Source: Bilabrum cf. latius
Taxonomy: Eukaryota
Direction of reading: 5' to 3'
Assembly (NCBI GenBank): GCA_965178125.1
Contig: OZ237756.1
Coordinates: forward strand, 62,001-126,000
DNA: 64,000 nucleotides
The notes under the pieces were generated by a model. It was not told the origin of the DNA and did no database searches. It was given only the letters and a program-made list of their open reading frames with translations. The translations under genes were made by a program, and so were the position numbers. The first letter of the stretch is position 1, and every line of letters starts with the position of its first letter. Below, one piece after another: positions 24,227 through 60,143 of this stretch.

Positions 24227-27200
24227 TCAAGACCTGATGCTTCGAACACGCCCGGTGGCTTTGTCGAATACCAGCCCGGCCCGCGCACCGCCGCTCCGTG
24301 ATGCCTCCACCAGCGAGCCGTTGCTGCCCCCGCTGCCGTCGCTGTCGCCAGAGACAGACCCACTGGCAGGCGACCCTACACCTGAGACCCCTGAGACCCC
24401 TGTGTGCGCTACACCGGCCCTAGCGTGATCCCTCTAGCCAGTGGCCCGCCTCTGAGACCCGCCCGACGAGTGCACCACTGGCACTCCTGCTGAGGAGTTT
24501 GCCTTGATTCGCCCCCTGGATTCTTTGCTGCTCCGACTAGAGGAAGTTGCCTTGATCCGTCCCCTAGATTCCTTGCTGCTTCTACTAGAGGCCCGCTCCA
24601 GCAGCCTGAATGACTGGCTTTTGCTGTCACTGACGCTGTGCTAGCTTGCAGTGGCCAATACAACTCTACTGCCGGTAGGACTCTAGTTCTTGAATCCGAC
24701 TCTAGCCCGAGAGGATGCACGCGCACCAACCCTCTTGGTCTCCAGCTCCCTTCCTTGCCTCAGGATGGGCCTTGGTGGAGAATTGAGTCGTGACGAGTGA
24801 CCTGTCACTGACCTGCAGCTCTGACTCCTCCTGAATCGTCGAGACAACCTTCCCAGCGAGTCGCTCTTACCACCTTCCCCCTCGCCCCCCGACCTCTTCC
24901 TTCCTTCACTTTTACTGTCGCTGCGCTTGGATCCCGTGCTGCCTACTAGCTAGCTCCGTGGATGAGACCCGATGTCTCTGTCTATATACTGCCGCTCCCT
25001 GGAGACCGCTGCCAGCAACCCGTGCTCGCTGGCAGCACGGCGCCCCATTGACCGTTCTGTCCCTGCCATCGATGCTCCCGCTCGGGCCCCGTGAGACCAC
25101 GACTTGGCGTCAGGTCTGATGAGACTCATACTGCTCCCACCGTCCTACCGTATCACAAACACCATCGCATCGGGGGGATCACTGTCACTGGCCTCCCGCT
25201 GTCTCTGCCTTTGCCCCACAGCCCCGCCCGGCTGCTCACTGCCGTGGTCCTCGTCCTCCTCTATGGGGTGCACTCTCCCGTCTGACCCGCGGCTTCCGTG
25301 TGGTTTGCTACCCCCCGACCTGGCCCTCTCCCCCTCTGGATCCCCCGGGTGCTGGAACCAGCAGTCCCCAGCAAACATCATGTGCACACAGTACCCAATA
25401 GTGGCCCCCGCCGCCATAGACACGCCCACAACGCCGGCCTGGCGCAGGGCAGCCACCATCCCATCATCCAACTGCGGATCAGGGGTAGGCTCCACCGATG
25501 GATCAAAGAGGTCCCAGGCGGCTTGCACCACCCTGGCAGCAGCCTCAGGAACATCATTATCGAGGACCGCGTTGCAATACACAAAGTGACACAGCTCGGG
25601 CTACTGTGCCTGCAGCTGCACCGGTCGCTCCTCGCTGCTCCAGTCAAGCATGTGCCCAAAGTTCACAGACACGCGCGCAGACGATAGCCAGCGCCCCGGC
25701 CGCCAGCTCTTGGCCAGTCTCAGCTTCAGGTAGTCCGGGTGGCTGTCCCCGGGACTGCCTGGGGCATCGAGCATGGCCACGGGCCAGCTGGCGGGGTCAC
25801 CTGAGAGGGCACTAGAGGTGGACAGCTGGCCCGACACGACGGTGGCAGTGCTTATGGCTGCCTGCACTGCTGACTAAATGTCACTGGCAGCGTACATCCG
25901 CTCGTTGCTCTGCATTCCCGCAGACCTCGCCATCTCTATGCTCTCTAGGAGCCGATCCACCCCGTGCTCCACAAACCCGCCCTCGAAAGTGGTGGCCCGC
26001 GGCACCTCCCCAGGGAAGCCCCCCAGCACCATCGTCCTGGCCCCCAGCTGCCGCTCGATCGTGCTGTAGAACTATCCGCACATGGACCCGCACAGCCCAT
26101 CCGTGACCAGCAATAGGTTGGACCTGTTGAGAGGCACCTGCTACCGGATGACCTCTTCGATGGAGCGGTCCGTCCGCAAGGCGCGCAGGGCCGACGGGTC
26201 GACCACACGCACTGGGAGCGAAACGGGATGTGACGTGCTCGTGTTCCGGTAGGCCTGCTTCCTCCCCGAGTCGTAGTACCACCGGTAGTAGGGGCGAGAA
26301 GTGGCCCCGGAGCTCCATGCCTGCCTGCCGTCCCTCCAGAACATGGACAGGGGGAAGGTCTCGAGCTGGCTGCTGCTCACCAGCTGCGGATAGGCCGATT
26401 CCAGCCGTGCCGCCGCAGCTGCCAGACCGGCCGAGGGCCGCAGCGCGTAAAGCGGGGAGGCTTTCTCCGGTCTCCTCGCCAGGTCCGGAGAGAGCTGCAC
26501 CGCGGCCAGCTGCCCGAGCAGGACGTTGCCGCCCCTGTTGCCCACGAGATCCAGCACCATCCCAGAGGCGCCGTAGCCCCTGTAGGCGCGGTGCGCCACG
26601 TCCGTGGACCTCCTGAAGAACCGGTTGATTCCCTCTGCATAGCACGCAGCTGCCTGGTCCTCCTGTTCCGGGGTAGCACACGGATTCTTGCTCACCCCCT
26701 GAAAGCACTCATCCAAGTACCCAGGCCGGAACGTGCCGAGCCGCAATACGATGAACGCTCTGATCCCCGGCGGAGGGTGCCCGAGCGCCAGCACGTCGGC
26801 CTCGTCTCCATGCAGCAGCTGGTCCCAGAACACGGCCGGGTGCGTGCCCTGGCTCCTGGCAGTGGTGCTGTCCTGCCAGCCCTGTGCCTGCGATGTGTCT
26901 CTGTCGGCGTTACTCTGGCTGGCCCGCTGCAAGGAGGCAGGGTCTGCCACATGCACCACGTGCACGCAGATGCCGTCCTCCATCTGCGTGTCTGACAGCA
27001 CACGGGAATGCCAGAGCAGCTTAGTCGCAGAGTGAGATTGGGCATCTTCCAGTCTCCTGCCTCCGTTGCCAAGAGCAAGAGCAGGTGGCGTGATGCCCTC
27101 TGGCGGGGCGGCAGCGCCACCTTGACTACCACCGGCGCGCCCCGCCTTGCTCCCAGGTTTCTGGCGCCGTAGATGCAGACCAGCAAGCTGCTTGACACGT

Positions 27201-28393
27201 TTTACTGGATGAATGCGACCGTTGGTAGCTCTCAGACCGTCCACTGCGGCGTGATCCGGCACACGGCTGTGCCCGTAGCTGGGAATTGCCGCAACCATTG
27301 CATGCGGCGCATCTGAGCTGGTGAGCTGCATGGCGCCAATAGGGGCGAGTACCTTCCGCTCGCTTAGTCCGAGGCGCGAAATGTTTTGATCAGGCTTCAT
27401 GCTTCCATGGTGCAGTTGTCTGCCAGTGTCAGCTGAATAGCCAACGCCAGTCCTCCCACCTGACAGGCACTGTGCACCTGTGGCAGCGATTACCGGACTC
27501 TCTGCCGCGCAAGCGGCTCTAAAGTCATTCAAACCGTCTGATGTGTACATGGGAAGTGCCCACCACTGTACGAGAACCTGTCGCAGCCTTCCGCTCGCTT
27601 CGTGCCGCAGCTGCAGCCGGACCGAGTCTTTCGCTGGCATGGCTGTCAGCCTCAAATCACGCACTGAAAATGTCATGTCCCGAACAGCTGACGTAAACCT
27701 TGCCCCTGATGACAAACTGTTACTCTCCCATCGATGCTGTGGATCGCTAGCAAAGTCCAGCAGGGCTTGTTCAGCTCTCTGTCCATCAAGGGACACGACC
27801 GTCCACCCAATGTACGGCACCAGCTCCTGCGCAATGGCTGATGTTACAGAGCTGCCGCCCAAGCGAAGCTCCTACAACTCGACTCGTATGGAGTTCTACT
27901 GGTATGAAACCGAAGGCCACACCGGTAAGATGGCAGCGATGGCGTAGCACCTCGGCTTCAAATACCCGGTGTGCATGTCTAGGAGTGGCCGCAGCTTGCT
28001 CTGTAATTGCTCATGGAAGTCCCAGTCTGTCTTGTACTAGCGGCCACGCAGCGATTGCACGTCTTTTAAGACATTGACTGGTTTGCTGTACGGATGAGCC
28101 CCTTCGAGCACTGGGTCCTGCAGCGAGTATTGCCGGAGGGCAGCGTACGTGTTAATGATGGAGGCATTCGCAACGCTGCCATTGAAGGGGAGCTGGTTGA
28201 AGCAGCTGCGCACTTGATTCATTGAAATAAAGCTGGAAATGTGCCCAACATCCGCACTGGTGGCGCCAGCCTCGCTGTCAGGCACTGACAAACCACTGAC
28301 TGGACGGAATGTGCATGCGTCTTGCGCTGCTACGCTCTGATAGATGCAAAGCCCAACTGCTAGGAGGGCGCGTGCATGCCATAATGCTTGCAT
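24227..28393 (-). CDS. Secreted/membrane-anchored peptidase S41-like protein (~1388 aa)
   Basis: Signal peptide MQALWHARALLAVGLCIYQSVAA. Motifs YKTDWDFHEQL..L.PLLDMH, LRLGTF, VLDLVGNRGG and LLVTDGLCGSMCG*F. One TM helix near 25380-25450, then an S/R-rich tail. About 12 in-frame TAGs; ends TGA 24227. Confidence 0.72.
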
Positions 28394-28583
28394 CACTGAG
28401 GCGAATTTAATCCATACTTTATCCTAAACGAGTCGTCCGCTGTGGCGCGTGCTCCACTCTCCGCGTCAGACAGGTGGTTGCAACCGCCCACTGGCACTGG
28501 ATTCAAGTTGGCCGGCGGTTTAGTGGCATCCGGATGGGATAATGCTGCGTATGTTGGGGATCAAACTCAGCACGTGTCTCGCC

Positions 28584-30827
28584 TCAGTCATCCTCCTCTT
28601 CATCATCGAACAGACCCGAATCATCGATGGTCGAGCCCTTCTTGGAATTCCCTTGCGCTTGCCCTGGGCCCCTCTGCGACCCCCGACCATGTCCAGCCCC
28701 TGACCCTGACCCTAAACCTGTCCCTGTCCCATCTGCGGGCCCATTGCTTTCGCCTGCCGTCGCACTACTGTCTCCTAGCATTGCCCCAATATCATCTTCC
28801 CCATCCTCATCCTCATCCTCATCCTAGTCATCGTCATCGTCCGCCATGGTTGCGGTACCCCCGCTTCCACCACGTGCACCACCGTGCGCTGCATCCTTGC
28901 CCCGGATCCCCATGGCTACTTGAGCCGCCAGCGCATCCGCTTCGTCATCCCCCGTCAGCGCAGCGCCCGTGGGGCCCGTCACTGCCTGCCGAGCGGCCCT
29001 CGCGCGCGACATGGCTGCGTCCGCCTCCGCACTGGCCCTGGCCGCAGCCTCCTGCTGCAGCTCCAGCTGCCTCTGGGCAGGGTCCTCGTACAGCAGCTGC
29101 AGGGCCATGCCCTCCGCCTACTGCACCTCCTGAGGAGCGGGCGCCCGCCGTGCCACGAACACGGGTTCCACCACCTGATCCTCTGCCCCCACGCCCATGG
29201 CCGCCTGCGCCGCAGTAGAGGACGCCACCTTCCCGCAGGTCGCCTTGGTCCTCACTGGTGCGAACCGCACCACGCCGCGGTCGTCGTCCCACCGCAGCAC
29301 CAGTGTCCTCTGGTTGGCCTGGGAAGCCGCCCCGCCCAGCACCACGAAATCCATCTCCCTGGCAAATTCCCTGACGCCTCCTCTTGCCCGGTACCTCCTG
29401 CGCTTGGTCCCAGCCAGGGGAGCCACCTCCTCTTCCTCTCTCTCCCCATCGCTCAAACCAGCATCATCCTCCGAGGGGGCATCCCCTTCCGCCCGCCGGT
29501 CCACCTCCGCTTGTTCCCTGGCCGCGGTCCCCTCGTCGTCCTGCCTCGGTACGTACACCCAGGCCAGGTCCCCCAGCCCCATGTAGGCCTCCCCCGATCT
29601 GTCCGCCCTCTCCCTCGCTTCCTTGGGCGTGCGGATCAGCACGTTCTGCAGGCGGCGGCGCTTGGCGGCACGGCCCAAGGGCTCTAAGCCCTTGGCCGCT
29701 CGTGCCTCCTCGTCGTCCACGGGGGCATCGAAGTCCACGTGCACCAGGCCGTCCGACCATGCCTGCGCGTCGGGCACGAGGGCCCAGGCCCGCTTGGGCC
29801 TAAGGCGGCGCTTCTTGGGGTCCGGGTGTCGCATGGAGGCCAGGGCCTGGGCGCGGGCAGAGGACGAGGACGAGGACGAGGACGAGGAAGAGGACGAGGG
29901 GGCGGATGATGCTGAAGACGAGGACGAGGAAGAGGAAGAGGACGAAGCAGCAGCGGCCCGGGGGAGCTGCATCTGCCCCGCCGTGTCCGCCACCGCGTCG
30001 AATTCGAGAGCCACCCTCTGCCCAGGGGTGAGCCCTTCCACGCTGCGACCTCCCGCCGCTGCCGCCGCGCTCTCCGCCTCGATCTGCCTCCTGGTGGCCT
30101 CGGCCCGCCTGCGGATGGCGTCTGCCTGGCCCTTGCCCCCGCCAGAGGCATCTCCCGTGGTGGCCTGCACGTTCTCGGAGAGATCTGAGAAGAAGAGCTT
30201 CGAGTGCATCATCCAGTCCACCTGCGAGGCCAGCTCCGTGCCAGAGACCTTGTTGGCGCGCTCGGCCTCATCTGCGAACTCGTCCGATGTGATGGCCGCG
30301 TCCAGCTCGTGCAGCTCCGGCAGCTTGCCATCTGGTCGGGGCGGAACTGCGAGGGAAAACATGGTCACGTTGTGCAATTGCAGAGAGCTGGTTTGGCAAA
30401 GTGAGTGGTGAGTATGAGCAGCATAATGGGTTTGACGGTGCTCACGCTCGCGCAAGCTAGGATCGATAATCAGCGCGCTAAAGTTAATTCCCAAGTCTGG
30501 TTCTGGGCGGATATCCCATTGGTAGGACTGCTCCATCGTCGGTCCCTCCGCTTCACTGTATCCAAACAGGCGATCTCGAGGCATCGGGTAGTGCACGAGC
30601 CTCGCCTCCGTGGGGGGATCGGGCAACGGGATCTGGAACTCCACAGGGCAGATAAAGGTGGCAGAATTTTTCATCTGATGCAGCTTGCTCCACGCTTCCT
30701 AAATATTGTGGTTTCGAATCACTCGCTGCCGGTACTCTGATACCCTCATACTACGTTCCTACCTGCGGCGCTGCCGCTCGGCTTCCGTCTCCCCAGCAGT
30801 GCCACCAACCTACATTGCCTATGCCAT
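28584..30827 (-). CDS. PAF1: RNA polymerase II-associated factor Paf1-like (~714 aa after removal of one intron)
   Basis: FICPVEFQIPLPDPP, PEPDLGI, HPDPKK..LRP..AWALVPD, VDFDAP and an acidic tail. TAGs at 30819, 30810, 30759, 30699, 29118 and 28824; ends TGA 28584. The start could instead be 30749 or 30674. Confidence 0.8.
30347..30445 (-). other. Probable 99-nt, frame-preserving, stop-free intron in PAF1
   Basis: GTGAGC donor (same as TPI intron 2) and TTTTCCCTCGCAG acceptor. Removal gives DPSLRELPPRPDG. Confidence 0.7.
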
Positions 30828-31634
30828 CTTGCCTGATAGTCTGACGTACAGGCGAATACACCCACGTTCCAGCCGAACTCAGTGCGCGGCATCTCAGCAA
30901 CGGCGCCGCGCACGCCGTGGTTCCGTAACAGGCGTCCAGGCAACGGGCAAACACACCAATACGATACACACGCTATACGCTATTGACACACAATGGAAGC
31001 ATGTGCTTTCATGGTTCTTTCCGTTTGTGGCAGTGAGGGCCGATGGATCCCCGGAGCTGCCCAACTTGCCTGACAGTTAGTCAGGGAAAATCGAAAATGG
31101 TGCATGCAGCGTCTATGTTTTCGAACACCAAACTCCTCGGCATAATCTGGCATAATGCTCTCTCTGTGATCTGATGTGACCTTCGCTGCCCATGCCTTGT
31201 CGAGGCGTTGTTCTCATCTCCTGAGCACCTTGCGCTTTGTAGAGCCCAACTACCACGCAATAATGCACTATGGCATATTTCGGGGTCGATAAGCGACTCA
31301 GTGCTTTTTGTTGACGTTCTCCTGCCATCTTGATTCGGAGAAGGGGAAAACCCAGCGCCTGTTCTATTCATATGCCATGCAAGCCAGCATCTTACCTTTG
31401 GATTCTGCGTTGTGGCATTACACAGCCGTTGAAACGACCAACATGAGATGATCAAGCAGAGTGATGGACTAGGGTCCCGAATTTTCGAGCTGCTCCGGGT
31501 GGTTAAAAAATGAATTAGGCCCTAGCGATGTGGGCATCCCATCCGCCACTTTAAGGGATCCTCGACCACATATCTGCATCAAATAATGGTACAGCGCTTG
31601 TGATTGATTTGATTGCTACATTAGGCAGGGAAAC

Positions 31635-34600
31635 ATGGCAGCTACTAGCTATGATGATATGATTGTGGACGACGGCCCAGGATGGTTTGGTTCCTGCGAC
31701 AGCGCGAAAGGGTTCCACCCGCTCAAATATTCTGGAGCAGAGCCAGTTCAACCTGCAATTATAGCTGCAAGCGCCTATACTGACATGTTTGACGGCGCGC
31801 AGGCACCTAGCAATGGCGGCAGGATTAGTACCACCCAAAGACGGGCCAGCCCGAGTTCGCTAGCATGGGATTCTTACAAGGAGCTCAGCCAGATTCGACT
31901 TAAGTCTGTAGGAGATTACGATAAGCATAAGAGGAACTAGCTTTTGGAAACGTTTGCGAAAAAGTTCAAGGACGCAGCAGTTGAGGCAGCTTTCAGGATC
32001 CCATCTGCCCTGTCGCGAGCTGCTGCGGAATCGGCTGCGGCAGGCACCTCAGCAGAGATAAACTTGACACAAGGATCTGCGCCTGATGACGATGTTTGCC
32101 TGCTGCCTGGCGCGGGTGGTATTGCGGGCGGCTTAAAAGCGACCCACCGGAAAAACGGGCTGTTTCTCAAGACCCCGGATGCAGCGTCGCCAATTTACCC
32201 GAACGAGGTCATGGCGGCGAAAGCAACCAAGCTAGAAGTAAGCGCGGCAAAGTATATACATTCCATGCGCGATCCTAGCGTCAACGGGGTTCCAATGACG
32301 GTGGTGGACGTGCCGTACGGGGACGTGCGAGGGGGTGGCAGGCAGGTGCAGCGAGTGCTAGTGCAGGGCATCGTCCCCATCAGCGAGGGCACTCTTAGGG
32401 TGGGCTCACCAGACGGTGGGGCCACAGTTCATAGCGATAGAAGCCTGCTCGATGTGGTCGTAATGCCGTTGGCACGAAGGTTCGGGCTGCACGGGCTGGA
32501 CTTGCCCGCTGCTCCTTTCTGGACCGTTTAGGAGCACTCGCATGAAATCGTGTTCGGCGAGGTAGATGCAGGAAGTTCAGATACGGGAACATGTCGTGGG
32601 GATGGCGCCGTGGGTACTGCGAGTAGCTCACTGGTGTCTGCAGAACCCCCGGCTGCAGCCGAACCCCCTGCTATCACAGTACAGCTGCCATCGCCTGCAT
32701 CTGGTGCAGGAGCAGACTGTCCTGCACGGCTGGACCAGCTGGCACTGCGGGGGGAAGATGGGGCCAGGGATGGGTTGGGAGAAGCTCGCAGCTAGGCAGT
32801 CGAACCAAGTACGGCAGGCCGAATCCCCGCAACCGGCGGCTCCCTCTTCCCATGTGACGTCAGCGGACCTCTTGCTGTCGTAGGGGAAACCACGCTGTCG
32901 GTGGCACATGCCTGCACCAGGAGTGTGGCCGAATTCATCGCTGCGAAGTGCCTGAAGAATTTGCGCGGTGGCCATCTCGCAGACCACGTTCAGCTGAACG
33001 AAACCGACACTTTCTTCTGCCCTCTCGTCTTCCCCACCCGCCGAGTAATCCACAGTGTTCGAACGAAGCAGCCACGGGAAGTGTCACCACCGGTGCTTCC
33101 ATTCGACGTGGAGGTGCACCAGCTGCCCAGCGGTGACCGAGTTGTCCTGGACACGCACCGGCTGCTCCTCCCCGATGTTGCCTGGAGCGACTGGGTGCGA
33201 CGGGCGAGTGATGCTGCTCCATGGGTGTTCTGCACCTACCCCAAGTACGAGTGGGGGCCGGTAAAATAGAAAGCGACCAATATATATGGCCGCCATGTGC
33301 CGCGTAACGGGTCATCTGAACCGCCCCGGCACGCTCGTGAGATCAACCCACGCTGGAGCGGGCCTCTCGGAACGGATCTTCGGTTCCTACTCGAGGCTCC
33401 TCACGTGAACGGGGTCATACGACAACTTGGCGCAGGCACTAAGGTGCCACCCGGGCTACTCGGGGAGCTGGAGTATGCCGTTCAAGAGTGGTGGGACCGC
33501 TGGAAGATGCGGCCTCCGACCGACCCACCCCAAGAAGACGTCTCCACATCTGCAACAGCATCGAGGACGGCTTCGCGTAGCCAGGGGGCACCCAGCACGA
33601 GTGGCGTCGTGGCGCACATCCCAAAACACGCAGAGTATTGCCCCTTTGAGCTGGCAGATCTAGACCTCTGCGTGAGAGCAATGCATGTCTGCCTCGGCAC
33701 TGGTTGCGTCGTGCTCCGAGGCGAGCTGCCTATGGGGGGTGCTGCTGCTGCCGGAAGCACAGATGGCTGGACCGGGTGTTCGGAAGCTGTCAAGCGGATG
33801 CTACCGCATGGGTTACCAGTATTTGTCGTAGCGTGTCCCCGTTGGTATTTTGGGGCGAGTTGCCACCTGACTTGCATGCTTCGTCCCGATGCTGGCACCC
33901 AGTCGAATCTCACTGCAGCACCCGACAGCGTGATGCGAGGTAGATGTAGCAAGGAAACTCGGTTTAGGGAAAAATCCGCGCTGCAGGCTGTCCAAGCATC
34001 GTTGCTAGGAGACGTGGTACGCGAGAGAAGGTCACGTTTCTATAGGAACACTGAGGAGACAGTATCACGGCAACAGGTCGTTCTCGAATGTCTCGCGAAG
34101 AGCCACTCTTTCCGCGACCAGGACTCAGCGAATGCCTTTGATCTAAGAAATCGAGCAAAGCGTGCGCTGCATTCGGCGGGGCTCAATCTCCGCTACCTTG
34201 GAATCATCGCGTAGTCAGTCCAAGGATGCGGGCTGAGTCCGCTCTGCAAACCGCCCTCTGTAGCTACACCACGGCGGTCGCACCGAAGCGAGTCTGATCG
34301 TATTGGAGTAGTACTGGGCGGCCTGCTTCCGTCTCCAGGATCTGCAGCTGGAGCGGCATTCCACGACTTTATTTTATCAGCTGCAGCAGCACATTAGTAG
34401 CAAGGGTGGCAGGTGAGTGCGGCTGTGCTCCGCTGCTGCTTGCTGGCCAGGGGCTTTGCCTGTCGAGGGATCGCGTTGGAGCCACATCCGGAGCATCTAG
34501 AGCTATCACAGCGCATTGTTATCGATTGGAAGGTAGACCACGAGTATAGGGTGACAATGGCACACGCCTGGCGTGAGACACCGCTGCCAAGTCTGGTGGC

Positions 34601-36935
34601 GCTACCCGCCGCTGCAGGAGGGGACGAGCTCGAAGCACGCCTGCTGCTCCAGATAGATCTGGAAGGACAAGGTCAGGATCCGTTTGATGAAGATGTTTTG
34701 CAGGCAGAACGGAAGCAGCGCCGCATCGCGAGACGGAAAGCTCAGAAGGCAGCGGCGAGGCTGGCGAGGAGCATGGAGCGCATGAGGCGCGACAGTTCTG
34801 GGTATGGCACAGTAGTCACAGGCTCCAGAGTCGGTGATGAACAGCAGAAAATTGTCGGTGTAGGCGAAAATAGCAAGAGTGAGCATGATGCTTGGGCGCG
34901 TGGAATGCGAGAGCTCTAGCATCTGTCGGTGTTCAAGGGCAGCAACTAGCTCAACTGGGTCAGGCAATTCTCCGAGGTGGTGCGAGCCAACGATAACCGC
35001 ATCATGGTTGGGCTCAGCTTCGAAAATGAATGGGAAAAGACCGTGCGAGCCTTACTTGTTCAGACTGGGCGGATACTTCTAGAGTCTCGGGTAGTCCAGG
35101 TCGGCAGGCGCGGCGCACGCAGCACCCTCGAAGTGCGCCATCCGGAGGGTATCCTGCACAGCGACCTGGCTTTTATTCGAAAGCATGCCCCGTTTGAGGG
35201 GGCGTTGATCCCTGAGGGTGACACTGCTCGCGCCTGGTGGCTCGCAGCATACCTGCTGCAAGCCGGCAGGCTGCACGAGCAGTGCTGCAGGCTGATTGTG
35301 CACGCTCTCTCGAATGCCGGCGAGCTAGGTGTGCAGCAAGATCGCAATATCACTGCTTTTCTTAACTTGGGCTTCGAGGCACTGAATGCCATCCTCCATG
35401 GGTTGTCAGGGAATTCAAGCTGCCAAACTGAGGCCAGCAAGCTGCAGGCAAGTCGAGGAAAGCTCATGATGGCTGCCGCACTTGCGCAGGCATGGCGAGA
35501 GGACGAACTTGTTCGTGCTTTACAATCCAACTCGGCTTCCGATGCGCAAGAATAGCCTAAGAGTGCTTCTCAGGGACTTGTGGACTTCGAATTCGATTCG
35601 GACTTCTCTATTGATAGCAGCCTAGACCTCCTAATGTCGGACATCAGCATCGACTTGGGCCCCGAGTTCGAACCATCCGAATCAGTAAAATTTGGCTATC
35701 CTTCTGGCGAGTCCGAAGAAGAGGAGACATTCGTTGCGCGGATATCACATAGGCATGCATTAGGGGAGAGAATTAATGTCAAGCAGAATGGTAGCGTCAT
35801 TACACCGCCGTACACACTTGCAAAGGAGAGCAAGGCTCTGCTGGCCGCTGTCCGGGATGCCGTAAGTGGCACGGATGTCAGAGAGAATAATTTGAATGTA
35901 GTAGCCATCATGTGGTACACCAGCCAGTAGGATGGGCTGAGTGTACCCCGTGATTCTGCTGCTTAGGCAGTAGCACTCGTGCGCCGCCTCGTCGATTAAT
36001 TGTGCAGCAAGCCTACGGACAATGACCGCTTTCCGTTGCTGAGGTGCTTGGCAGAGCTGGTGTTGAGGCTGTATGGCCGAAGATCGCCCGAGTACTACAA
36101 GGCAGTTGTAGCACTGATCAAGTGCTGTGAGCCATACATGCCTAGCGCATGCGGGACAAAGCTGCTAGCTAAGCTGAAACAAGATCGATACGCCCTGGCG
36201 ATCTCAGTGTTCGGAGAAGGCAGCCTGCAGATGATCGAGACCTTGCAGGCGAGTGGGGTCTCTGACTTGGACTGCTTTGGAGCAGTGGAAGGTACAAAGT
36301 TTGAGGGCATGCCGCACCACATTGAGATCCTCGTGCGACTGGCGCGTCAATACCTTAGGGATAGCAGCGATCTCGACGAGGCCATTCGAGCGGCATGGTG
36401 CGCGGTGAGGATGGCCGACAGGTACTGGAAGGAACCGTCATTAGGGTGGCTGGACGCGGCGCTATGCTTGTCCAGGTCCCTCTGCAAAGCATGGATGCCC
36501 TCATGCCGCAGCCCGGAGCCGGACTAGGCCTATGACGCTGTTTGGGAATCAGAACCGGTGGATCTCCCCGATCTGGACTACCCGAGTCTTTGCATTCCAT
36601 TGCAACGGAGAATAGTCAAAGTTGCTGCGGTGGTGCACGGCGAGGAAAGTAAATGCTGCTTGCATTCGATGCACATTCTTGCTGAGCAGCTGTGGATGGC
36701 GGGCGAGCTCCCAGCGGCGATAGATGTGTTGCGCAATCTTATCCGCATCCGAAAGTCTAGTGATCACAGATGGGGGGCTGACTGGGAATGGGATGAAGAT
36801 TTGCAGGCGTATTGGACAGACGAAGAAAAGCTCGATTGCATGGAGAAGCAGTTGCAACAACAGCAGCAGGAACGAGCCAGTGCTTCTAGCAGTTTGGAGG
36901 AGGTGCAATCGTGCGAAGTAGGACCACCGACCTGA
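31635..36935 (+). CDS. CLU (clustered mitochondria) central-domain-like protein with helical/TPR-like C-terminus (~1766 codons)
   Basis: Single frame with 13 TAGs and one TAA (35997). Motifs GDRVVLDTHRLLLPD and LHSAGLNLRYLG resemble CLU DGRxYxLDxxRxxPxD and HxxGINxRYLG. Ends TGA. Confidence 0.6.
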
Positions 36936-37586
36936 TTAAGCAAAACAATCAACTTTGAGAGATGCTTTCATTGAACAGCTTAAGTTTGTTGTGTCATTTT
37001 TCGCTAATCAGGCTGTTGAATCCGGAATCAGCTGGCGGCAGGGCTAGGCCGCTAGCGTCTCTGCATAAGCTTGGTCCGATGAGTCATTCGCATCAGTCAC
37101 GCTCGCGCACAACAATACAATGAGTGCAAAGCGAGTGCGGTTTAGGGCTAGACAGGCCTTGTTGGCCGCTCGCATGAAATCGTCTTGGGCAACCACTGGA
37201 GAGGGCAGAGTTTTGGCACAGCGGGCTACCTAGTGTTCCTTCACGTCGCCGTTCCACATAGATTCGGAAAAAGGCAAGCAGCAGCGTTAGTTTTACACGT
37301 ACGCTATGCTGCCGTGCGTAGTGGTAACTTTTGGGTGCGGCGTTGTGGCACTGGAATAGACTCGATAGCTTTTCAACACAGCTGTCGAAGAGGGAAAGAG
37401 AAGGTAAATTTGATGAAACGGGATCTGCATGTGCGAATAGCAATGCACGATGTGCTTGCTCTGATGGGACTTTGGCAATGGCGTACGTCACTACTGCCCA
37501 CGTCGTCAGGTATGTTGAAAGCCTCGACCACCCATGAATTGAATCAATATGGAGCGGTTATGGTATACTCGCATAGTCCAATCAAA

Positions 37587-38751
37587 TCAGTCTCCGGCTC
37601 CGCCAGTGGCAGCCCCGGCCAACAAATCCACCTCGTCGTCCCCGTCCCCCTCTCCAGCACCTGCTCCGCTCTCTCCGCCCGCCTTGGCGCGGGCGATGGC
37701 CTTCTCGATGGCGGGGCCGATCGAAAACTCCGTCGCCGGGAACAGGGCAGCGCGAATCACTGGCTGTGCTCCGTGCAGCACCCCTTCCAGCCGCGACAGC
37801 AAGCGGTTGTCGCACTCCACCAGCCGGTCCACGCTGGTTGCAACCACTCCCAGGTCGGGCAGCTCCCCGGGGACCTAGTCCCCCCCGGGTTTCCCCACCC
37901 CACCCTCCTCCTCCTCCTCCACGGCCTCCACCTCGGTCAGGTCGGAGGCTCGCCTCTAGCCCAGCGATGCGTGGGGGTCCAGACCCACAGAGGGCACGAA
38001 GTCGTCCAGCACAGGGGCGCTTCCACCGTGCTCGCCCTCCCCGCCCCCGTCCTTCCAAGCCTGCATCGCACGGTCGTGCGCCCGCCTGCGCTGCTCCATG
38101 ACGAGTGCCCGTACCCTCTCGAGGTCCTTGGGGCTCCCGAAGTGCTGCCTGTCGTCGGGGTGCACCACGAGGAGCACCTCGCGGACGAACGATGACACGT
38201 CCTCTGCCGCGCGGCGGTCGTCCTCCCGCTCCCTGCTCGTCAATCGCACGATAGCCTGAGCGGCCAGGCGATCTAGCAGCCGGCCGTATGCTGACGGATC
38301 TCTGCGTTTCAGCTCAATTGCTTGCATTGCGCTCTGTTTCTGCAACTCCAGCAGGTGCTTGTTCATCGCATCCAGCATAGTCTTTCGAGCTGACCGTTTC
38401 AAGTCAGCTTCATCGCTGCGTAACGGCCGGGTGCAATCAGTCGAAACACCATGAGACAAATGGCATGCACAGAGACACGAGTGATCCGACATGGATCCTT
38501 CTTGTGCCGCTCGGGACAATAGCTTACACTTTCGACTTTGTTAGTAATCTATTAAGTTCATCTTGTCTTAATGCCGCAAGCCTGTCGTCTTCCTCCTTCT
38601 TTAGGGTTGCCCTGCGTGTGCTCAATTCACGGCTGGTCCTCATCTGCAATTCCTTGATTTTTTGTGCAGCCTCAAGCCTGATAAATCGCACCATCTGGTC
38701 AATTTGAAACTAAGCATCGGAATCAGAGAGGCCACGCTGCACAGCTGACAT
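37587..38751 (-). CDS. V-type ATPase subunit E-like, divergent (~350 aa; intron 38416-38527)
   Basis: LSDSDA*FQIDQMVRFIRLEAAQKIKE matches the V-ATPase E N-terminus, and the C-terminal GVVATSVDRLVECDNRLLSRL matches GGV....GKI.V.NTL.SRL. GTAAGC...ACGCAG intron; TAGs at 38710, 37956 and 37875; ends TGA. Confidence 0.78.
38416..38527 (-). other. Spliceosomal intron in the V-ATPase E-like gene
   Basis: GTAAGC donor and ACGCAG acceptor. Needed to join two frames, and it removes an in-frame TAA. Confidence 0.8.
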
Positions 38752-38855
38752 GATTGTGAGCGCGATCGAGCAGCCGCCATACAGTGCCAGTTGCGTGCAC
38801 TTCGGCGACCGACCGGAATTCGTCTTTGTATCGATCTCATGCCACTGCAGCAGGC

Positions 38856-40395
38856 ATGGATGGGGCTAGAAGCCTGTTTAGGTCTGTATTCGAAGCAGTT
38901 GGTAGCAGTTGGTGCCCCGGACGGAAGCGTCAGCGCGAAGCAAGCAACGATATCGAACCGATTGCTGTGTCTCAAGCTCTAGACCAGAGCGAGCACAGAT
39001 CCCGAAAAAAGCGAAGGAAGGACACGTTATCATCACAGGACTCTCTCAGTAATAGTTCAAGTAGCGAAGTCTCGCGTAGGGCGCTAGCTTCCTCGGGTCG
39101 CAGCGTAGACCAGTCACCAGCGCTGTCGCCTGTGAGTGCGAATACCCCTTTGGACGTTGGAGGGCTGGTCAAGGACATTTCAGGGTCTTAGGACCGCATT
39201 TAGTCGTCTTAGTTACGTATCATGGACAAGAAGCGCCGACTGACCGACACCCAAGCGAGCGTGATGCGAATGGCAAAGATGGTGGCTCAAATGGACAAGC
39301 TTGTCAAGCAGCGAGAATCCAATTAGACATACTTACGACAGACACAGTAGGACCTGGAGAAGCTTGTTCCATCGAACCAACCAGGCACAGCCTCCTAGCA
39401 GGGTGCTCTCCGCCGCGAGGTGCAGGAGGCCTTGCAGCTGGACGCCAGGCTGCAGCAGGAGGTGCACCGCCTCATGCAGGACATTGAGGAAGAGGGGCCC
39501 AGGGCAGGAGTGCGCACTCCCACCCGGAGCACCCCTGCCAAGCCCAGCATTAGAAGGGCGGCAAAAGAGGCAGGGGGGCCCTCGGGTCGAGGTGGACGCG
39601 CGTCAGGCAGAAGGCCCAGCGCCACGAAGGCCTCCGGCAGCTCCATGGTGCATCGCACTGTCGCACCCACCCCGAGGCGACCATCAACAGGTGCAGCACA
39701 GGCACTGGCAGTGGCACCCAGCCCGCCCAGCGACGGTGCAGGTGCTGGCTCGCCGTCCTCGTCCCCGTCTCCGCCCTTGCCTGGTGCGGTCGGTCTCGGC
39801 GCGATCTACGGCTCCTCCATGCGGGGCATGACCACGGCCCAGAAAGTGGACGCCCTGAGGAACAGAGCGAGGGCGCTGGTGGGGCGGGGTGGGGGTGAAC
39901 GTGTGGATGTGGGTGCACGGCACGATGGTGCTGGGCGAGGCATGCGGGAAACAGCGAAAGACGCATCGAGCCACCGTGGGGGTGCAGGGCACGATGGTGC
40001 ACGACAGAAGGCTGGGAAACAGCTGACCAACTCACGCGACCCTGTGGCCTGGATGCTTAGCCAATCGTCTTCCTCCTCGTCCTCTGCGTCCGCGTCTAAG
40101 CCAAGCGCGGCCGCTGCCCGGCCGCCCAAGCAGGCCCGCTCTGCTGCTGCCCCGAGGCTGAGGTCGCCGCTGCGACTCAATCGAGGGCGCCTGGGTAGCC
40201 GAAAGCAGCGCAGTGCAGTGCATCAAGCACCTGCAGCACGGGCCACGGTTACTGCCACCACCCCTCCGCGCGGCCTCTCGCAGGGCCCCTCCATTGAGAC
40301 GCTGGAGGAGAGCCTCATCGCTGCAGTGGCCGGGGGTGCGGCGGGGGCAGGAGCCAGGCCAAGGGAGGGAACAAGCAGGGCAGGCAAAGCACCTG

Positions 40396-40426
<31 letters not shown>

Positions 40427-43400
40427 CTCGACGCAGGACAAAGTGCGTCGGCTAGAGGCGCTGCTGGACAGCATGGACACCGCCCTGCGCGGCATCACCG
40501 CAGACGGGATCGACATAGGCACCTCGGATCGCGAGGTGCAGGCCGCGGAGCTGGGAGGGGGCTTGCTGCTGGCCCCTGCCCCTGGAGACATCGAGAGGGG
40601 CGGCATGCCTGCGAGCAGGAGGCTGGGGGACTCGATGCCCCAGAACTCCAAGCAGCTGCAGAGGATGCTGCTGATGGCCGAGCAAAGGGCCGTGCACAGG
40701 CTCCAGGCGAGTGCGAGAGATGACGGGGCGCTGTGGTCGCAAGGCAGAGGCAGGGACAGAAGCAGGGGCAGTGGTAGTGCGGGCAAGCCCATGAGGTCTG
40801 CACCCGGCTCGATTGCTAGGAATGGTGCGAGGACCACTGAGGGCTCTGGCGCAGATGGAGCCGGAAGGGGTTTGGGGGCCGGTGAGAACGGGTACGATAA
40901 TGCACTCTGGGGCGGGAGTGCGGTCTCGTTTGGTGATAACGAAGGTACTTCTGGGATTCTAGATGGGGTTGTGGATAGGCACGGGCCTCTGGATGGGGAT
41001 CTGGACGGCGGCAGAGGCGGCAGCAGGTCGGGTAGGAGGAAGACTTCGCCGCTGGGCCATGCCGCAGCACAGGCCAGGCGAGCCTCTCAGTCGCTGTCCC
41101 CTCGAGTGATCAAGGAGCATGCGGGGGCCGAGACTGCGGCAGCCGCAGACAAAGACGACGGGCACCGTCACAGGCTGGAGCATGAAGAGGATGGCCGGAA
41201 GAACGAGGTGGAGGAGGAGGAAGAGGAGGAGGTGGAGGTGCTGAGCCGCGGGAGTGGGGATGAAGATGAAGAGAGCGTCTAGGAGGACGAAGATGATGAT
41301 GAGGACGAGCACGAGGTGGTGGACGTGGTCGATCCGCCTGAAGAGGGCGACAGTCATGATCCCAGCGCGGGTTCGTCTGGCCTCAAGGAGGACAACGGAG
41401 TGGTGCTGGTGCTGTCCTCGGACAGCGACGAGGACAGCGACAGCGAGGACAACAGTGACGATGACAGCGACGCAGACGACAGCACGCACCCAGGGCGCGC
41501 TCCCTCCTCCCGGAGAACTGGCGCTCCAGCGCAGCAGCAGCAGCAGCCCCCGATGGACGCACATAGGGAGTCCCAGGCACTTGCACTCGTCAGCGGCATG
41601 ATGGCTTTCAGGGGAGGGCACGACGATGCGAGCGGTGTAGAGGCATCTATCGATGCCGCGGCAGCCAGCGCTCGAGAGGGCGAGGAGGAGGACGAGAACT
41701 CGCAGGCCACTCGAGACCTCACCGGGGAAAGGGAGAGCGAAGGTGCGCTTGATCTGGCCTGCGGGCCCGAGGGACCGGTCGTGTGCGAGGGAGATGAAGT
41801 GTTCGGGGGACCCCCCGAGCTGGACAATGCCGTGCTGGGGCACATGGACGCGGAGGACGTGGCTGGTGCACAGGCCCCCACCGATGCAGAGGCAGCTGCC
41901 AGGCGGCAGGCCGTGGTGGATGCGGCGCTCGCAGCACTCCGCGGCTCCGGTGCGCTGACTGCCCACCAGCTGTCTCAGGCCCGCCCTTTCCTGGAGTCCA
42001 TCCGAGGGGGCAGGCCACCGATGTGCCCGCTGCCCACGGCTGGCGAGATGGCAGCTCTAGCCTTCGCCATGTTCGCGCCGCTGGCCTCGGTGAGCCCCAA
42101 GAATATCAGCGAGGAGGACTTGGTGGGGCGGGTGGATGGTACAGCGGTGAAGATCAGGGACTTCAGGCGACTGGTGGACGGGGAGTGGACCACGGATGAG
42201 ACGATCAACTTCTGCATGCGGCTCTTGATCCACGAGTGCAAAGGGGGGTCTCAGTTTACGAGGACGGTCCGCCTGGGCTACAGGAGGGCGAGGGCTGTGT
42301 ATGCCCGGGGGCAGGCTTTGAGGGACGCCGATGCCGCTGCTGCCGCTGCTGCGCGAGACGAGGGCTTAGGTAGGGGTGCCGCAGCCGCTGCGCCTCGGTT
42401 GGACGGGTACAGGGAGCTCCCGGAGGAAGTGGTTGTCATGAAGCGCCCTGCCGTGAGGGTGAGAGGTCCCTTCGGCACAGCAGGACGGAGGGCGCAGACA
42501 ATGACCAGCTTCCTAGCAGAGAGGATGGTGACTGCGGGGGCGGGGCCGGACCAGGCCTTCACCGCCAAGGCCGCCGCGCTGCTGCCCCGCGCCGTGTACG
42601 GAAGGCCTCTCTCCGACCGGAGGGCGCGGCTGCCTCCCGAGGGGCTCCTGTACAGGTACGACAACGTGAGGAGGTGGCTGTACAAGCGGAACTGCGCCCA
42701 ACTCGCCCACTTGGACGTGGTTTTGGTGCCCATCAACCTGCTCAACACGCACTGGGCATTCTTTGGGATCGACGCGCGGCCGCACGCGCGACTTTTGGCC
42801 TACCACGACAGTCTGCCTGGGTCTGGAGACCCTCTGGGCCCCCATCGGCGCGCCTTCCACCTAGGGGCCGTGCTCTGGCAGTGGGTCCAGGACGAGGGGA
42901 GGAGGGCGGTCGAAGACGGCCACAGTAGCCGCATGCCGGGTGCTCCCATCCCAGCGGCGGGGGCGCGCCGCATGCCCCTCAGCGAGCGCGGGAGAGCGGC
43001 ACTGTGCGCGGGGGGGCTGGGGGACGGGAGCGGGGATGCGGGTGAGATAGCTGCAGCTGCAGCTGCCCGAGGCAAGGAGAAGGGAGGAACCGGGGCATGG
43101 TCCTCTGCGGGTCGGGTGCAGCGCGCTGCGGTGCACGCCACCAGCACGGAGGACGTGCCCTTCCGCATGGTGCGGGCCCGGAACAGCGCGAGGCAGCACA
43201 ACGGGTTCGACTGCGGTCTCTTCACGGTGGAGTATGCCCGTTGCTTCCTGCGGTATGATGCCTGCGACCCTGGGAGCTACCCCAGGGGCCCAGCCATTGA
43301 CGAGCAGGGCAAGATCGGTGCGGCCCCCGCGGATTTCTCGCAGGCGGACATGCGTGCCATTCGCCGGCGGGTGGCGATGGAGATAGTCAGGTCGGGCGCC

Positions 43401-44360
43401 AAGGGAGACGGTCGAGGAGTGCGGAGGATGCTGCGTCTGGCTGGCCTCAGGGAAGCACAAGGCGGCAGGGTGATCAGAGCGATCGATGGGGTGCAGGAGT
43501 GGGTCGTGGGAGAGGCCCCTCCTGGCGGCGATAGCGATGGCAAGGGAGATGGAGATGGAGTGGGTGCACCCTAGGCTTCATCTGCGTTGTTCCCTGCTCG
43601 CGGCGGCATGGGTATGGGGGCGAGTGCAATGCACGGTGGTGCATCCGGTGGGGATGACGGCAGCACGGACGGAAGCAGTGGCAGTGGCGAGGGGAGGTCC
43701 AGCCAGGGATCTCCCGAGCCCGATGCAGCTGGAGGTTCAGGTGGGCAGAGCGTTCGAGTGCAGCCGAGTGCGAGGAAGCAAGGGGGGAGAAGAGAGGAGG
43801 AGGAGGAGGATGGGTCCAGCAGCAGCGATGATGATGGAGATATTGGCGACGAAGAGGGTGACGATGATGATGATGATGACGATGACAGCGATCTTGAGAT
43901 CGTGGGGATGCTGGACGAGGACGGTGTGGCGCAGCCTATCCCCGGCAGCTCCGCAGGCGCAGCAGGTGCAACAGGTCAAGAGGGGCAGGAGGACCAGGAC
44001 GAGGAGCTGGAGCTGCAGGCCGCCCTGGTGGCGAGCCTGCATCAGGGCAAGGGCAATGGTCACGGGCAAGGGCGCGGGCACGGGCACGGGCACGGGCACG
44101 GGCGCGGTGATGCTGACGGCGGGCGGAGGGATACTGGATTTGATGCCGGGGGGTGGGGGCGGGATGGGATGGCTGGCACTGGGCAGGGACTCGCAGTGAG
44201 CAGCTCGCAGGCTGCCATGGTGGCAGCAGAGGCGGCGCGGCGGGCGGCTGGACAGCAGCCCATGGACTGGAGCCTTGGGGGAGTCAGGGATGAGGAAGGG
44301 GAGGAGGAGGAGGAGGAGGAGGAGGAGGACGGTGATGATGCAGAGATGCACTGGCTTTGA
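38856..44360 (+). CDS. Ulp1/SENP (peptidase C48) SUMO protease with long disordered flanks (~1834 aa)
   Basis: GEWTTDETINF, YDNVRRW, VLVPINLLNTHW (His), YHDSL (Asp), RQHNGFDCGLF (Gln/Cys), DFSQADM..IRRR. Eight in-frame TAGs; ends TGA. Confidence 0.85.
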
Positions 44361-45237: not shown

Positions 45238-45335
45238 GGTAGACAAGTATAAACCGAAGCCGATCCACAAGCGATTTGCACTCGTCATCATCCACACCAC
45301 TGCGGTCCAAAAAATAAGCTCTTCCTTTTTTAATC

Positions 45336-46070
45336 ATGCGGGGAAGAATCAATAGTTTGCGAGTGTCAGGCAACGGGGATATGTAGCGTATGTTGAAACG
45401 TCTGGTGTCTCTGAATTCGAAGCCGATCGCATGGAGTTCATTTAAGATGAGGTACCTCGGAGACATGTCAGTGCAGTGTGTTCAAAATGGTTTCCGGACA
45501 TTGCACGTATCTGCATGCGCCTCGGATGACTAGGATTTACCGTGGATCAACGAAGATCACGCTAGCGTTGCGGCTCAGCTGAAGGCATTGTCTGAGCGAG
45601 GCCTTGTAGATGCCGCGCTATCTAATGAGACCAGGAAGGTTAAAGGCAAGCGTGCACTTAAGAAAACCGCTCTCCAAGCTGTTGTTGCTGTCAAAGATGG
45701 AAACAAGCCCCCTTCAAAGCTGTCAATCGACGAGCTTCTGTCTCGAGCTCTGCGTGCTGCCCCAGAAGTCGACACTCCGTGGGGAAGTACGGACTTGACA
45801 CAAGGCGAATCTGCACAGGCTGGATCGCAAGGCCAAGACCAACAGCAAACCGTGCCAGCTGCAAGTAGCCATGCGAGTTAGAGTGCTCCTAAGGCGGACA
45901 AAGCTGCGCTTGCACATACCCCAGGCACGCCCGATCAGGGCAAGGTGTCTGGCACTGGCAGGGAGGCTGCAGGCGATGAATCCAGTGGCAGTGGTTCCGG
46001 TGAAGCGAGCCAAGACGACGCCAGCCTTGATCTTGCAGGTTATTTGCTCCGCCAGACCGGTCGTAGATGA
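45336..46070 (+). CDS. Hypothetical protein (~244 aa; start may be 45381 or 45390), possibly mitochondrial
   Basis: Open frame with three TAGs, ending in TGA 46068. Basic, acid-poor N-terminus. No family recognised. Confidence 0.5.
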
Positions 46071-46373: not shown

Positions 46374-48299
46374 TCACGGAGTCTCAGTAGTCAAGAAAGC
46401 CAGCTTGGCCGCTTCATAGCTAGAGATCATCACGGCGCACGCCGGCGCCACTTTGGCCAGCCTCGCGCCCAGCCCCGCGAAGATTGCCCTGGGCCCCTCC
46501 TCTCTCACGATGTCCACCAGCATGCGCCACGTGCTCTCCGAGCCCCACACCCACCCGGAGGCGGCGTCGGGCCTGCACCGCGCCACGGCCGCCACCTGCA
46601 TGGCAAGCGCCCTCGTGCCGGCCCTGCACAGGGGAGGGACTTGCGGGTTGTGGGCGAGCGCAGCTGCACCCAGGCGAGCGTCTGCCCCGGCCAGGGAAGA
46701 CGATGCCGCCGAGGAGGCGCCTCCGCGCGCGAGTCCACGGGTAGCCTGACCCCCCAAACTCGAGCCAGAGCCCGCCGCCACGCTTCCGCCACCGCCTCCT
46801 GCCCCTCCTTTCTGCACCGCGGCCCCCTGCCCCTGGTCCAGGTGCAGCTGCACCTGCCTCCTAGTCTTGACCACATCGAATGGTGTGGTCACCGTGGCAG
46901 CCACTGCCCCTGAAGTGGCCCCTGCTGAGAAGGCCACGGCGAAGTTCTGCTGCCACGTGGCGTCCTCTAGCCGCTGCAGGCCCAGCGACCTCATCCCCCT
47001 AGCCTTGAGGGACTCGTAGCCCAGCCAATATATGGCGGAGAACGGCACATCCCGCAGCAGCGTGGGGCCCAGCCCCCTCCACAGAGACAGCAGCCCCTGA
47101 GACGAGGCCACCTCCTCCTGCAGCACCCGGAAGACCCCCAGCTTGCTTGCACCCGCGCTGGCCTGCATCCTCGTCCTCACCAGCTCAAGCGGGGCGATCA
47201 CAGTGGCGGCCATCGTCCTGGCACCAGCACCCGCCAGCAGGGGGGCCCAGGCGTGCAGCACGGCGCCCAGCCCCCTGGCATCGGGGCCCCCTGCCGCCCT
47301 CTGCAGCGACTGCCTGGTCTCGTCGTACGCGGTAAAGTACAGCGTGGTGCTCGGGACCGCCATGACGAGCGCAGGACTCAGCCCGCTCCACAGCGCCAGG
47401 GCGCCCTCGCCCCTGACGATCTGGGCCGCCGTGGCCCACAAGGACAGGGCCGCGGGCCGCACCACGCGGGCGGCGGCAGCCTCTGCAGCAGCCCGTGCGG
47501 CGGCCCTGGCCTGCTCCGCGGCGGCGTGCGCTGCAGTGCCCTGCGCCCCCACGCCGCCCGAGGCCCATGCCACGGAGAGGCCCCGAGCGCCACCAGACGA
47601 CCGCAGCATGATCCGGCTGGCACCGGCGCCCGGCCACCGCCCTCCCCCGGTGCCCCGCTCAACGCCACGGAAACTTGCCGTCGTCCGTCCGCCGGAACGG
47701 CGAGGTCCTCGACTGGTCGTGCCGCAAGCGCCTCGGATAAATTCGCCGGGCACCGCCCCGGTACGACTAGCTATTAAAACTATGGGGCTTCTGGCCTGGT
47801 GATGGATCGGTGCGTGCGCTGCTGCCACGCTTCCAGCGAAACGATGACGGTTCCGGTGCACAGAGCGTTTCGCTTGTCTCGCCCACTCTGACCACCGCTA
47901 CGCCCAGTGAAGACCCGTGGAGCGGCTTGGCACAGCCAAATAATGACGTCTGGCAGACTGCTGCTGCAGTGCCGTGTAGCCAGGCCTGCTAAGTTGTGGT
48001 GGGAGCTGTCGCCACGCACCCGTGCTGAACGGTCGCCCCTTCTGAGGCTTGCTTAAGGCGCTGCTGTCTGGAACTCGCGAAGTGTTCAATTTAGTTGGAG
48101 TAGAAGAGCTGCCTCGTGGCTCGCTGGCTTTTTCTTCCCGGCCAGTCCAATTGGTCATCTGCCTAGTCTTGATCACATCAAGCGGTGTGGTAAACAAGTT
48201 TGTCACAACTGCGCCGACACTTGCGGCCATAGCTTTCTGCCAAGGCAGAATATCTTGCCTATTCTTATCAGACGCGCATCCATTGTCATTGCAAGACAT
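46374..48299 (-). CDS. Mitochondrial carrier SLC25A39/40 (Mtm1)-like (~641 aa, long loop inserts)
   Basis: TPLDVIKTR, LWSGLSPALVMAVPSTTLYFTAYD, PLELVRTRMQ, SLWRGLGPTLLRDVPFSAIYW, TPFDVVKTRRQ, KVAPACAVMISSYE. One TAG (47898) links repeat 1 to the rest; ends TGA. Alternative ATG at 48374. Confidence 0.88.
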
Positions 48300-48472
48300 C
48301 GATACGAAAGATGCGGCAGCGACGGAGCAAGCGACGTGTTCTGTATTTTCGTCGGCCGAGACAAAAACGCACATTACAATTTTCAGATCTGGGTGTTCAG
48401 TGAAATTGGGCCTACGTTCAAAATTGATTGATCATATTCCTACCACTTTCGTTAAAATACGTTATACGTGGT

Positions 48473-59700: not shown

Positions 59701-60028
59701 GGTCAGGGAATGGTATACATGAATACGATCATAGTATACCACTGGCTGTACCAAGCCAATCAAATTTAGCTTCAAATGTAGTAGAGACTGCGGACGGTAA
59801 GGGTATGTCACGTCGGTTGAAACCGGGGCAGTCATCATTGTGGGGCTCTCGGTCGGCTCTGAAGGCTGTCTTGCAGTCCCAGCGGTTCGCGCTCCAGGAT
59901 CACGACGAGCCGATCATGTGGAGCTTGCGGGACAGCCCTCTGACTGCGTGGGCAGAGGCATGCGGTGTGCATGGGAGCGGCCCTGAGAGCATGAGTGAGG
60001 CTGGAGGCAGTGCAATGTGGGGTGCATG
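56704..60028 (+). repeat. Tandem segmental duplication, copy 1 (period ~3.97 kb)
   Basis: Near-identical to 60671-64000, starting at CATCGGCATTTGATGCA. Confidence 0.95.
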
Positions 60029-60143
60029 TGCTGCTTTGAGAGGGCGGCAGATTGAAGGTGCTGGCAAGCAGCCTATGGTGGATCGGGTTGCGTCACACCC
60101 TTCTCTGCCAGCTTACGTGATCCCTGAACGTTGGCGACAGTGA
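56943..60143 (+). CDS. Signal-peptide-bearing class I SAM-dependent methyltransferase (Methyltransf_24-like), copy 1 (~1066 aa)
   Basis: Signal MQLSTCCVSGWLLMLILLLAGGTVEA. Motifs VVLEVGSFHGMS, VLSVDLW, VDLLFIDGDHS, GGRVLLHD. Six in-frame TAGs; ends TGA. Confidence 0.8.

Follow-up and report, generated by a model that had tools for sequence, protein, structure and literature searches.

The 64,000-nucleotide stretch of Bilabrum cf. latius DNA analyzed here (positions 62,001 to 126,000 of contig OZ237756.1; referred to below, at its full length, as the window, with coordinates counted from its first letter) is eukaryotic nuclear DNA with few introns and a G+C content of ~61%. Under the bacterial or standard code it displays open reading frames (ORFs) of moderate length, which become very long frames once TAG is read as a residue. 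One of these long frames, at 31608-36935 on the plus strand, encodes a protein of the CLU family and is interrupted by an in-frame TAA at 35997-35999. Our analysis favors, with about an even chance of being right, a code that has gained TAG alone as a sense codon and retains TAA as a stop, with the TAA of the CLU-family ORF representing a transcribed premature stop, most likely a young nonsense allele. The elements on which this account depends are listed below; X1, X5 and X7 (as well as X6) are sequencing runs from a total of seven that contain the stretch, all available in the form of contigs, which show presence and not absence.

31608-36935, plus strand: CLU-domain ORF (Pfam)
31635..35996, plus strand: upstream part of the CLU-family ORF; first ATG at 31635, start of the stop-to-stop ORF at 31608; 12 in-frame TAGs
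35927..36007, plus strand: candidate 81-nucleotide (nt) intron GTAGGA..TGTGCAG, rejected for the main form of the mRNA
35997..35999, plus strand: in-frame TAA, with identical letters in contigs of runs X1, X5 and X7
36000..36932, plus strand: 311 further codons of the same frame, with one TAG, no TAA and no TGA; putative helical-repeat character
36933..36935, plus strand: closing TGA; in-frame TGA, TAA, TAA and TGA come within the next 28 codons
32518..37003, plus strand: RNA-like contig of 4493 nt (X5 record 12), with no other letters, no gaps and a depth of 22.3; bears the TAA and the downstream ORF
38416..38527, minus strand: control intron of 112 nt, GTAAGC..CGCAG, in a V-ATPase subunit E-like gene; spliced in X5, X6 and X7, not in X1

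That the TAA is in frame with the long ORF 31608-36935 follows from the sequence and the ORF reading, the local codons being CGC CTC GTC GAT TAA TTG TGC AGC AAG. With TAG taken as sense, an ORF of 1463 amino acids (31608..35999) terminates at this TAA, and directly adjoining it in the same frame is an ORF of 311 amino acids (36000..36935) that closes with TGA. An initial sequence-only reading had described this arrangement as LVRRLVD-TAA-LCSKP followed by ~310 plausible codons, and this description holds, since 311 codons devoid of TAA and TGA and of coding-like character do follow. Three explanations had been offered for it, namely (a) an intron that removes the TAA, (b) a very rare glutamine codon in a code with TGA as the sole stop, or (c) a real stop or an error.

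The usage of the three triplets in the window provides the broadest evidence. Across 15 genes (19,399 codons), TAA 35997 is the sole in-frame TAA, as compared with 139 in-frame TAGs and no TGA, and the two off-frame readings of the same genes yield 57 and 66 TAA, 172 and 177 TAG, and 301 and 412 TGA, respectively; that is, in-frame TAA is depleted ~60-fold relative to the off-frame readings, and TAG is barely avoided. The A/G ratio of purine-ending codon pairs lies in the range of 0.22-0.38 (e.g., 0.30 for CAA/CAG with counts of 205 and 691, 0.34 for GAA/GAG, 0.38 for AAA/AAG), compared with 1/139 for TAA/TAG. If TAA were used in proportion to CAA, ~32 of the 140 TAA and TAG codons would be expected to be TAA; only one is seen (binomial P(<=1) = 6.8e-15). 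Because of this discrepancy, TAA is clearly not equivalent to TAG and not a routine sense codon, and the point underlying the sequence-only reading, that the two triplets are treated very differently in this DNA, is correct.

TAG itself is a sense codon in this nuclear DNA. It behaves as such across the window, with up to 35 instances in a single 4930-codon protein kinase ORF (7753-22545); Pfam domains (Pkinase, CLU, Paf1 and Methyltransf_24) extend across TAGs, and RNA-like contigs cross them unspliced. As to its meaning, the Pfam scores summed over four domain segments fit glutamine (245.5 bits), lysine (245.6) and glutamate (244.8) equally well, and serine (242.4), tyrosine (239.8) and leucine (238.9) worse by 3-7 bits; the TAG of the kinase domain falls on a variable alignment column. 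Translation of TAG as Q is used throughout for convenience only. A tRNA scan of the 64-kb window detected no tRNA genes.

With respect to termination, TGA closes each of the 14 genes whose end can be determined, and TAA closes none (the 14 include an uncharacterized ORF at 45318-46070 and omit two genes that run off the window), as had been anticipated from the sequence alone along with the commonness of CAA. The ratio of TGA to TAA trinucleotides is 127:39 in 5,983 noncoding bases and 301:57 and 412:66 in the two off-frame readings, corresponding to a composition-expected TAA share of 14-23% among stops and a probability of 0.026-0.12 for zero TAA ends out of 14. The lack of TAA gene ends is only weakly unusual given composition; it hints at a sparing use of TAA as a stop without proving it.

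The frame beyond TAA 35997 is maintained coding sequence, because it comprises 311 stop-free codons with a coding score similar to that of the remaining gene. When codon usage is scored with a model derived from the other genes of the window, 36000-36932 reaches +0.115 bits per codon in the CLU frame vs. -0.32 and -0.25 in the other two frames; for comparison, the score is +0.092 for the rest of the CLU gene and at or below zero for pieces of untranslated region (UTR) or intergenic DNA. The pattern of G+C content over the three codon positions (GC1>GC2<GC3) also persists downstream of the TAA. Beyond the 14 real TGA stops, 420 in-frame codons contain 5 TAA and 11 TGA, and at this rate the chance of encountering 311 codons without either is ~6e-6.

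The protein is assigned by a Pfam match to CLU (PF13236) at residues 103-296 (E-value 1.6e-7; 31.8 bits vs. a cut-off of 24, or 35.9 bits on the N-terminal piece alone). Weak matches, both below their cut-offs, are observed to eIF3_p135 near residue 851 (16.7 bits vs. 22, E-value 0.0079) and to TPR_12, the latter only downstream of the TAA (17.6-19.7 bits vs. 30.1, E-value 0.004 to 0.001). The CLU family carries a C-terminal TPR region, so that a protein with the full domain order would have to include the 311 codons, the only TPR match being downstream. The resemblance to the CLU/TIF31 family consists in a CLU domain above the Pfam cut-off and weak eIF3_p135 and TPR_12 matches in the family's usual order; the differences are a much greater length (1775 codons) with long low-complexity inserts, a frame interrupted by TAA and a C-terminal part of 811 residues without detectable relatives. 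An AlphaFold2 model built from the single sequence of 35745-36932 is all-helical at low confidence (mean predicted local distance difference test score, pLDDT, of 51.9) and places the TAA at model residue 85, within a helix spanning residues 69-88 (local pLDDT ~73), tentatively suggesting that a stop at this site would cut a repeat or structural unit and not mark a domain end.

Searches for relatives of the C-terminal region gave no matches: none for residues 1200-1775 among 8000 candidates of near length in a word-indexed search, none for the C-terminal 811 residues in a HMMER search against 1.84 billion representatives, none for a 186-residue fragment around the TAA among 749 candidates (near lengths only), and none in a PDB sequence search at E-values up to 10. 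A metagenome scan gave one locus (L001), which has no more than a WGADWEWD motif in common with the region and was rejected as a chance match; it is bacterial, with SecA-like and carboxypeptidase-like ORFs. Two features of the gene may be recorded at this point. The part of the ORF surrounding the TAA seems to be under weaker constraint than the sequence on either side; in 35553-36000, G+C drops locally, an acidic low-complexity insert is present, and 3 of the 13 TAGs of the gene fall within ~150 codons along with the TAA. At 32331-32573, 33096-33133 and 37895-37934, the contigs of all runs branch to other sequence, and DNA depth reaches ~124 at 32335-32601 vs. ~17-20 around it; these three segments are dispersed repeats or low-complexity DNA in or near the CLU gene.

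Run X1 behaves as DNA, with flat depth and a contig that extends over 32528-39000, and X5, X6 and X7, obtained in two other studies, resemble RNA in that contigs break at gene borders and depth is gene-dependent (12 to 73 in X5). The RNA nature of these three runs is deduced from the contig breaks, the gene-wise depth and a splice joint, as no run is recorded as RNA and the automatic labels read "probably DNA" for X5 and "RNA?" for X6 and X7. The joint in question (38415->38528) is common to X5, X6 and X7 and absent from X1; it skips 112 nt with CT..AC ends, i.e., GT..AG on the minus strand, and restores the frame of the V-ATPase subunit E-like gene next to the CLU gene. X5 record 12 (32518-37003) traverses TAA 35997 without a gap and ends 68 nt past the TGA at 36933, and X7 record 26 (35936-36640) traverses it likewise without a gap; among the X6 contigs listed, none lies over 35997. 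No splice joint in the CLU region is listed in X5, X6 or X7, and no variant letter at 35997 is listed in any run. The departures of X6 from the window within this gene, at 33716 and 35807, are both synonymous third positions. TAA 35997 stays in the mature, unspliced mRNA as its main form, even if a minor spliced form may be hidden in contigs.

Taken as a whole, the evidence is best fitted by the real-stop half of option (c). Only TAG would have been reassigned to sense in this code, TAA most likely still terminates, and TGA would be the usual stop of a GC-rich genome, favored because of base composition. TAA 35997, situated in the predicted C-terminal helical-repeat region, probably terminates translation and would act as a premature stop that leaves 1463 of the 1775 residues (counted from stop to stop); the remaining 311 codons would be translated only upon chance ribosomal readthrough. 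The lesion is probably young, a nonsense allele being the most likely form of it because the downstream frame shows no second lesion. Supporting points are that TAA is avoided in frame, is no synonym of TAG, occurs in the transcript and is followed by coding sequence, that codes of this kind have precedents, and that a count of 0/14 TAA gene ends is compatible with composition. Several observations weigh against this account. The same count of 0/14 leaves the terminator role of TAA without a direct instance in the window, and in some GC-rich eukaryotes TAA makes up 28-60% of stops, a share at which 0/14 would have a probability of <=0.01. A premature stop in an otherwise intact frame of 1775 codons is in itself unlikely to be met; the mRNA shows no visible depletion, with a contig depth of 22.3 vs. 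12-73 for its neighbors (contig depth being a poor measure); a second allele may be hidden in the contigs; and the searches of the C-terminal region found no relatives by which the TAA could be dated as old or young.

Among the alternatives, removal of the TAA by a spliceosomal intron, option (a), would account for the clustering of three apparent stops (TAG 35928, TAG 35964 and the TAA) within 24 codons, and both GT..AG ends and the strings on which the proposal was built (GTAGGA at 35927, TGTGCAG at 36001-36007) are indeed found in the sequence, with the two TAGs falling within the candidate intron at 35927-36007. This intron is nevertheless refuted for the main mRNA form, because the RNA-like contigs pass through the site unspliced and these runs do splice the neighboring intron: X5 and X7 are unbroken through both proposed splice sites, and across 35900-36020, where the sequence-only reading had looked to RNA for a decision, they show no splice that removes the TAA. 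In addition, the acceptor (GCAG) fits, but the donor GTAGGA departs from the GTRAGY type seen here, i.e., from the RNA-confirmed GTAAGC and from GTGAGT and GTGAGC of a triosephosphate isomerase (TPI) gene (both placed by eye). Of two other candidates, 35862-36007 (GTAAGT..GCAG, 146 nt) would cause a frameshift leading to an early TGA, and 35862-36011 (GTAAGT..CAAG, 150 nt) would keep the frame but shows no joint, so that an intron of any of these forms appears very improbable. The remaining half of option (c), a sequencing or assembly error, or a collapsed heterozygous site with a sense codon on the other allele, fares no better. Contigs do drop minor variants, but no other letter is listed at 35997, and the same letters recur in the DNA-like X1 and in the RNA-like X5 and X7 from two other studies, which makes this explanation equally hard to credit. 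Somewhat less remote, though still quite unlikely, is a split into two genes, with the CLU protein ending at the TAA and the 311-codon frame forming a separate TPR-like gene with its own start. The first in-frame ATG does occur 45 codons after the TAA; on the other hand, UTR, promoter and leader would need to fit in 135 nt, the coding score already holds in 36000-36299, both parts share a frame and an RNA contig without a break, and the CLU family has a TPR region at its C-terminus, the only TPR match here being downstream of the TAA.

Two further explanations are each considered unlikely, if less so than those above. Selected stop-codon readthrough, by which the TAA would be kept as a stop in order to yield a short CLU protein without the last repeats along with a long one, agrees with an intact, coding-like downstream frame and with the presence of both parts on one mRNA. 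However, TAA-TTG-TGC is not known to promote readthrough, UAA is generally the least leaky stop, and no RNA structure beyond chance follows the TAA (z-scores of 0.19-0.64 for three stretches, with 110-145 of 200 shuffles folding as well); moreover, the low-confidence model would place the TAA inside a predicted helix and not between domains. Alternatively, TAA may be nearly unassigned, i.e., out of use in both roles, with TGA as the sole efficient stop and with release-factor recognition of both UAR codons lost or weak. The cell would then possess only a tRNA with the CUA anticodon, UAA would have been purged as sense and as stop, and the TAA of the CLU gene, slowly decoded by a near-cognate tRNA, would represent an early sense use or a tolerated slow-decoding site. 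The rarity of TAA in both roles (0/14 gene ends and 1/19,399 in-frame codons) and its occurrence in a mature mRNA with a maintained downstream frame speak for this possibility, as does the usual joint change of UAG and UAA stated in excerpts from PMC5304391. Yet 0/14 is expected with P 0.03-0.12 from composition alone, and a single instance cannot separate a rare sense codon from a nonsense allele. Sequence-only option (b), with TAA as a very rare glutamine codon and TGA as the sole stop, is likewise possible but unlikely; in frame, TAA is avoided to a stop-like degree, a use in proportion to CAA is contradicted by the counts, and the absence of TAA ends is only weakly unusual.

Reassignment of UAG with UAA kept as a stop is described, in the excerpts from PMC5304391, for Iotanema spirale (UAG=Gln), in which UAA is the predominant terminator, and for the rhizarian exLh (UAG=Leu), and, in those from PMC11687900, for Protocruzia tuzeti and phyllopharyngean ciliates (UAG=Gln) and Scotinosphaera (UAG=Ser). 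As in these UAG-only (table-15-like) codes, TAG is frequent in frame, at sense frequency (139/19,399 codons), and TAA is purged from coding frames (1); unlike in Iotanema, where UAA predominates according to the same excerpts, 14/14 genes end in TGA and 0/14 in TAA. The UAR-to-Gln code (NCBI table 6) is listed in the excerpted parts of PMC5304391 and PMC11687900 for many ciliates, some Ulvophyceae, Hexamita, Streblomastix and Amoeboaphelidium protococcarum. It shares with the window the sense use of TAG and agrees with the TGA present at every observed gene end; it differs in that TAA is not used like TAG here, where table 6 predicts about 30-40 in-frame TAAs. Our literature search did not find a GC-rich eukaryote combining a TAG sense codon with TGA-only stops; of the aphelid papers covered, PMC10608142 yielded nothing on the genetic code and PMC3975115 nothing on codons. 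Readthrough and premature stops in standard-code eukaryotes share with the CLU case an in-frame stop in a maintained ORF and a normal-looking mRNA; the CLU case differs from known readthrough by the lack of a known context and of RNA structure, and from all standard-code cases by a host that already decodes TAG, which may alter its handling of UAA.

The significance of the CLU-family TAA depends on the use of TAA elsewhere in the genome. Should many other genes end in TAA, it would amount to no more than a nonsense allele under a variant code of a type already described. If TAA is nearly unassigned, the organism would be a living intermediate from UAG-only to UAR reassignment in a GC-rich, non-ciliate eukaryote, and, if TAA is also unused as a stop genome-wide, a rare and bench-testable intermediate of code evolution. 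Few lineages split UAA and UAG, and the order of events (tRNA, release factor or codon disuse first) is still argued.

The other genes of the window, named from Pfam matches or from their translations, are as follows; the smaller ones (TPI, V-ATPase subunit E-like and glyoxalase/VOC-like) were recognized by eye.

7753-22545: protein kinase ORF, 4930 amino acids, 35 in-frame TAGs (Pfam)
22930-24068, plus strand: TPI gene (homologues of PF00121), ends in TGA
24227-28465: ORF (TAG-sense reading)
28584-30878: Paf1 ORF (Pfam)
37587-38749, minus strand: V-ATPase subunit E-like gene (named from a reading of the translation, no family search)
38760-44360: Ulp1 protease ORF (Pfam)
46374-48431: mitochondrial carrier ORF (Pfam)
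48428-56716: coiled-coil ORF, 2762 amino acids (TAG-sense reading)
56538-60143 and 60699-63998, plus strand: tandem Methyltransf_24 genes (Pfam)
Also present: a BMT5-like gene and a NIF phosphatase gene (Pfam); a glyoxalase/VOC-like gene (named from a reading of the translation)

The best database matches of TPI are 54-62% identical and are spread over plants, fungi and animals; its two short introns (GTGAGT..TGCAG and GTGAGC..CGCAG) were placed by eye from the protein. In the V-ATPase subunit E-like gene, no ATG is observed within the RNA contig upstream of the conserved N-terminal motif, which may point to an additional 5' exon or to initiation at a codon other than ATG. Between the 3' end of this gene (37077) and the facing end of the CLU mRNA (37003) lie 73 nt. 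In the Methyltransf_24 tandem duplicate, all seven in-frame TAGs of the first copy (7/7) are retained as TAG at the matching sites of the second. The kinase catalytic domain is split by an insert of ~900 residues between two Pfam-matched halves (16570-17142 and ~19800-20400, plus strand), and a weak guanylate-cyclase match lies upstream in the same 4930-codon ORF (residues 2298-2340). Inside the 2762-codon coiled-coil ORF, 51146-53071 (plus strand) is a long run of near-identical units QLQEAEAERAAVQG with alternating K/Q, over which six of six frames are open.

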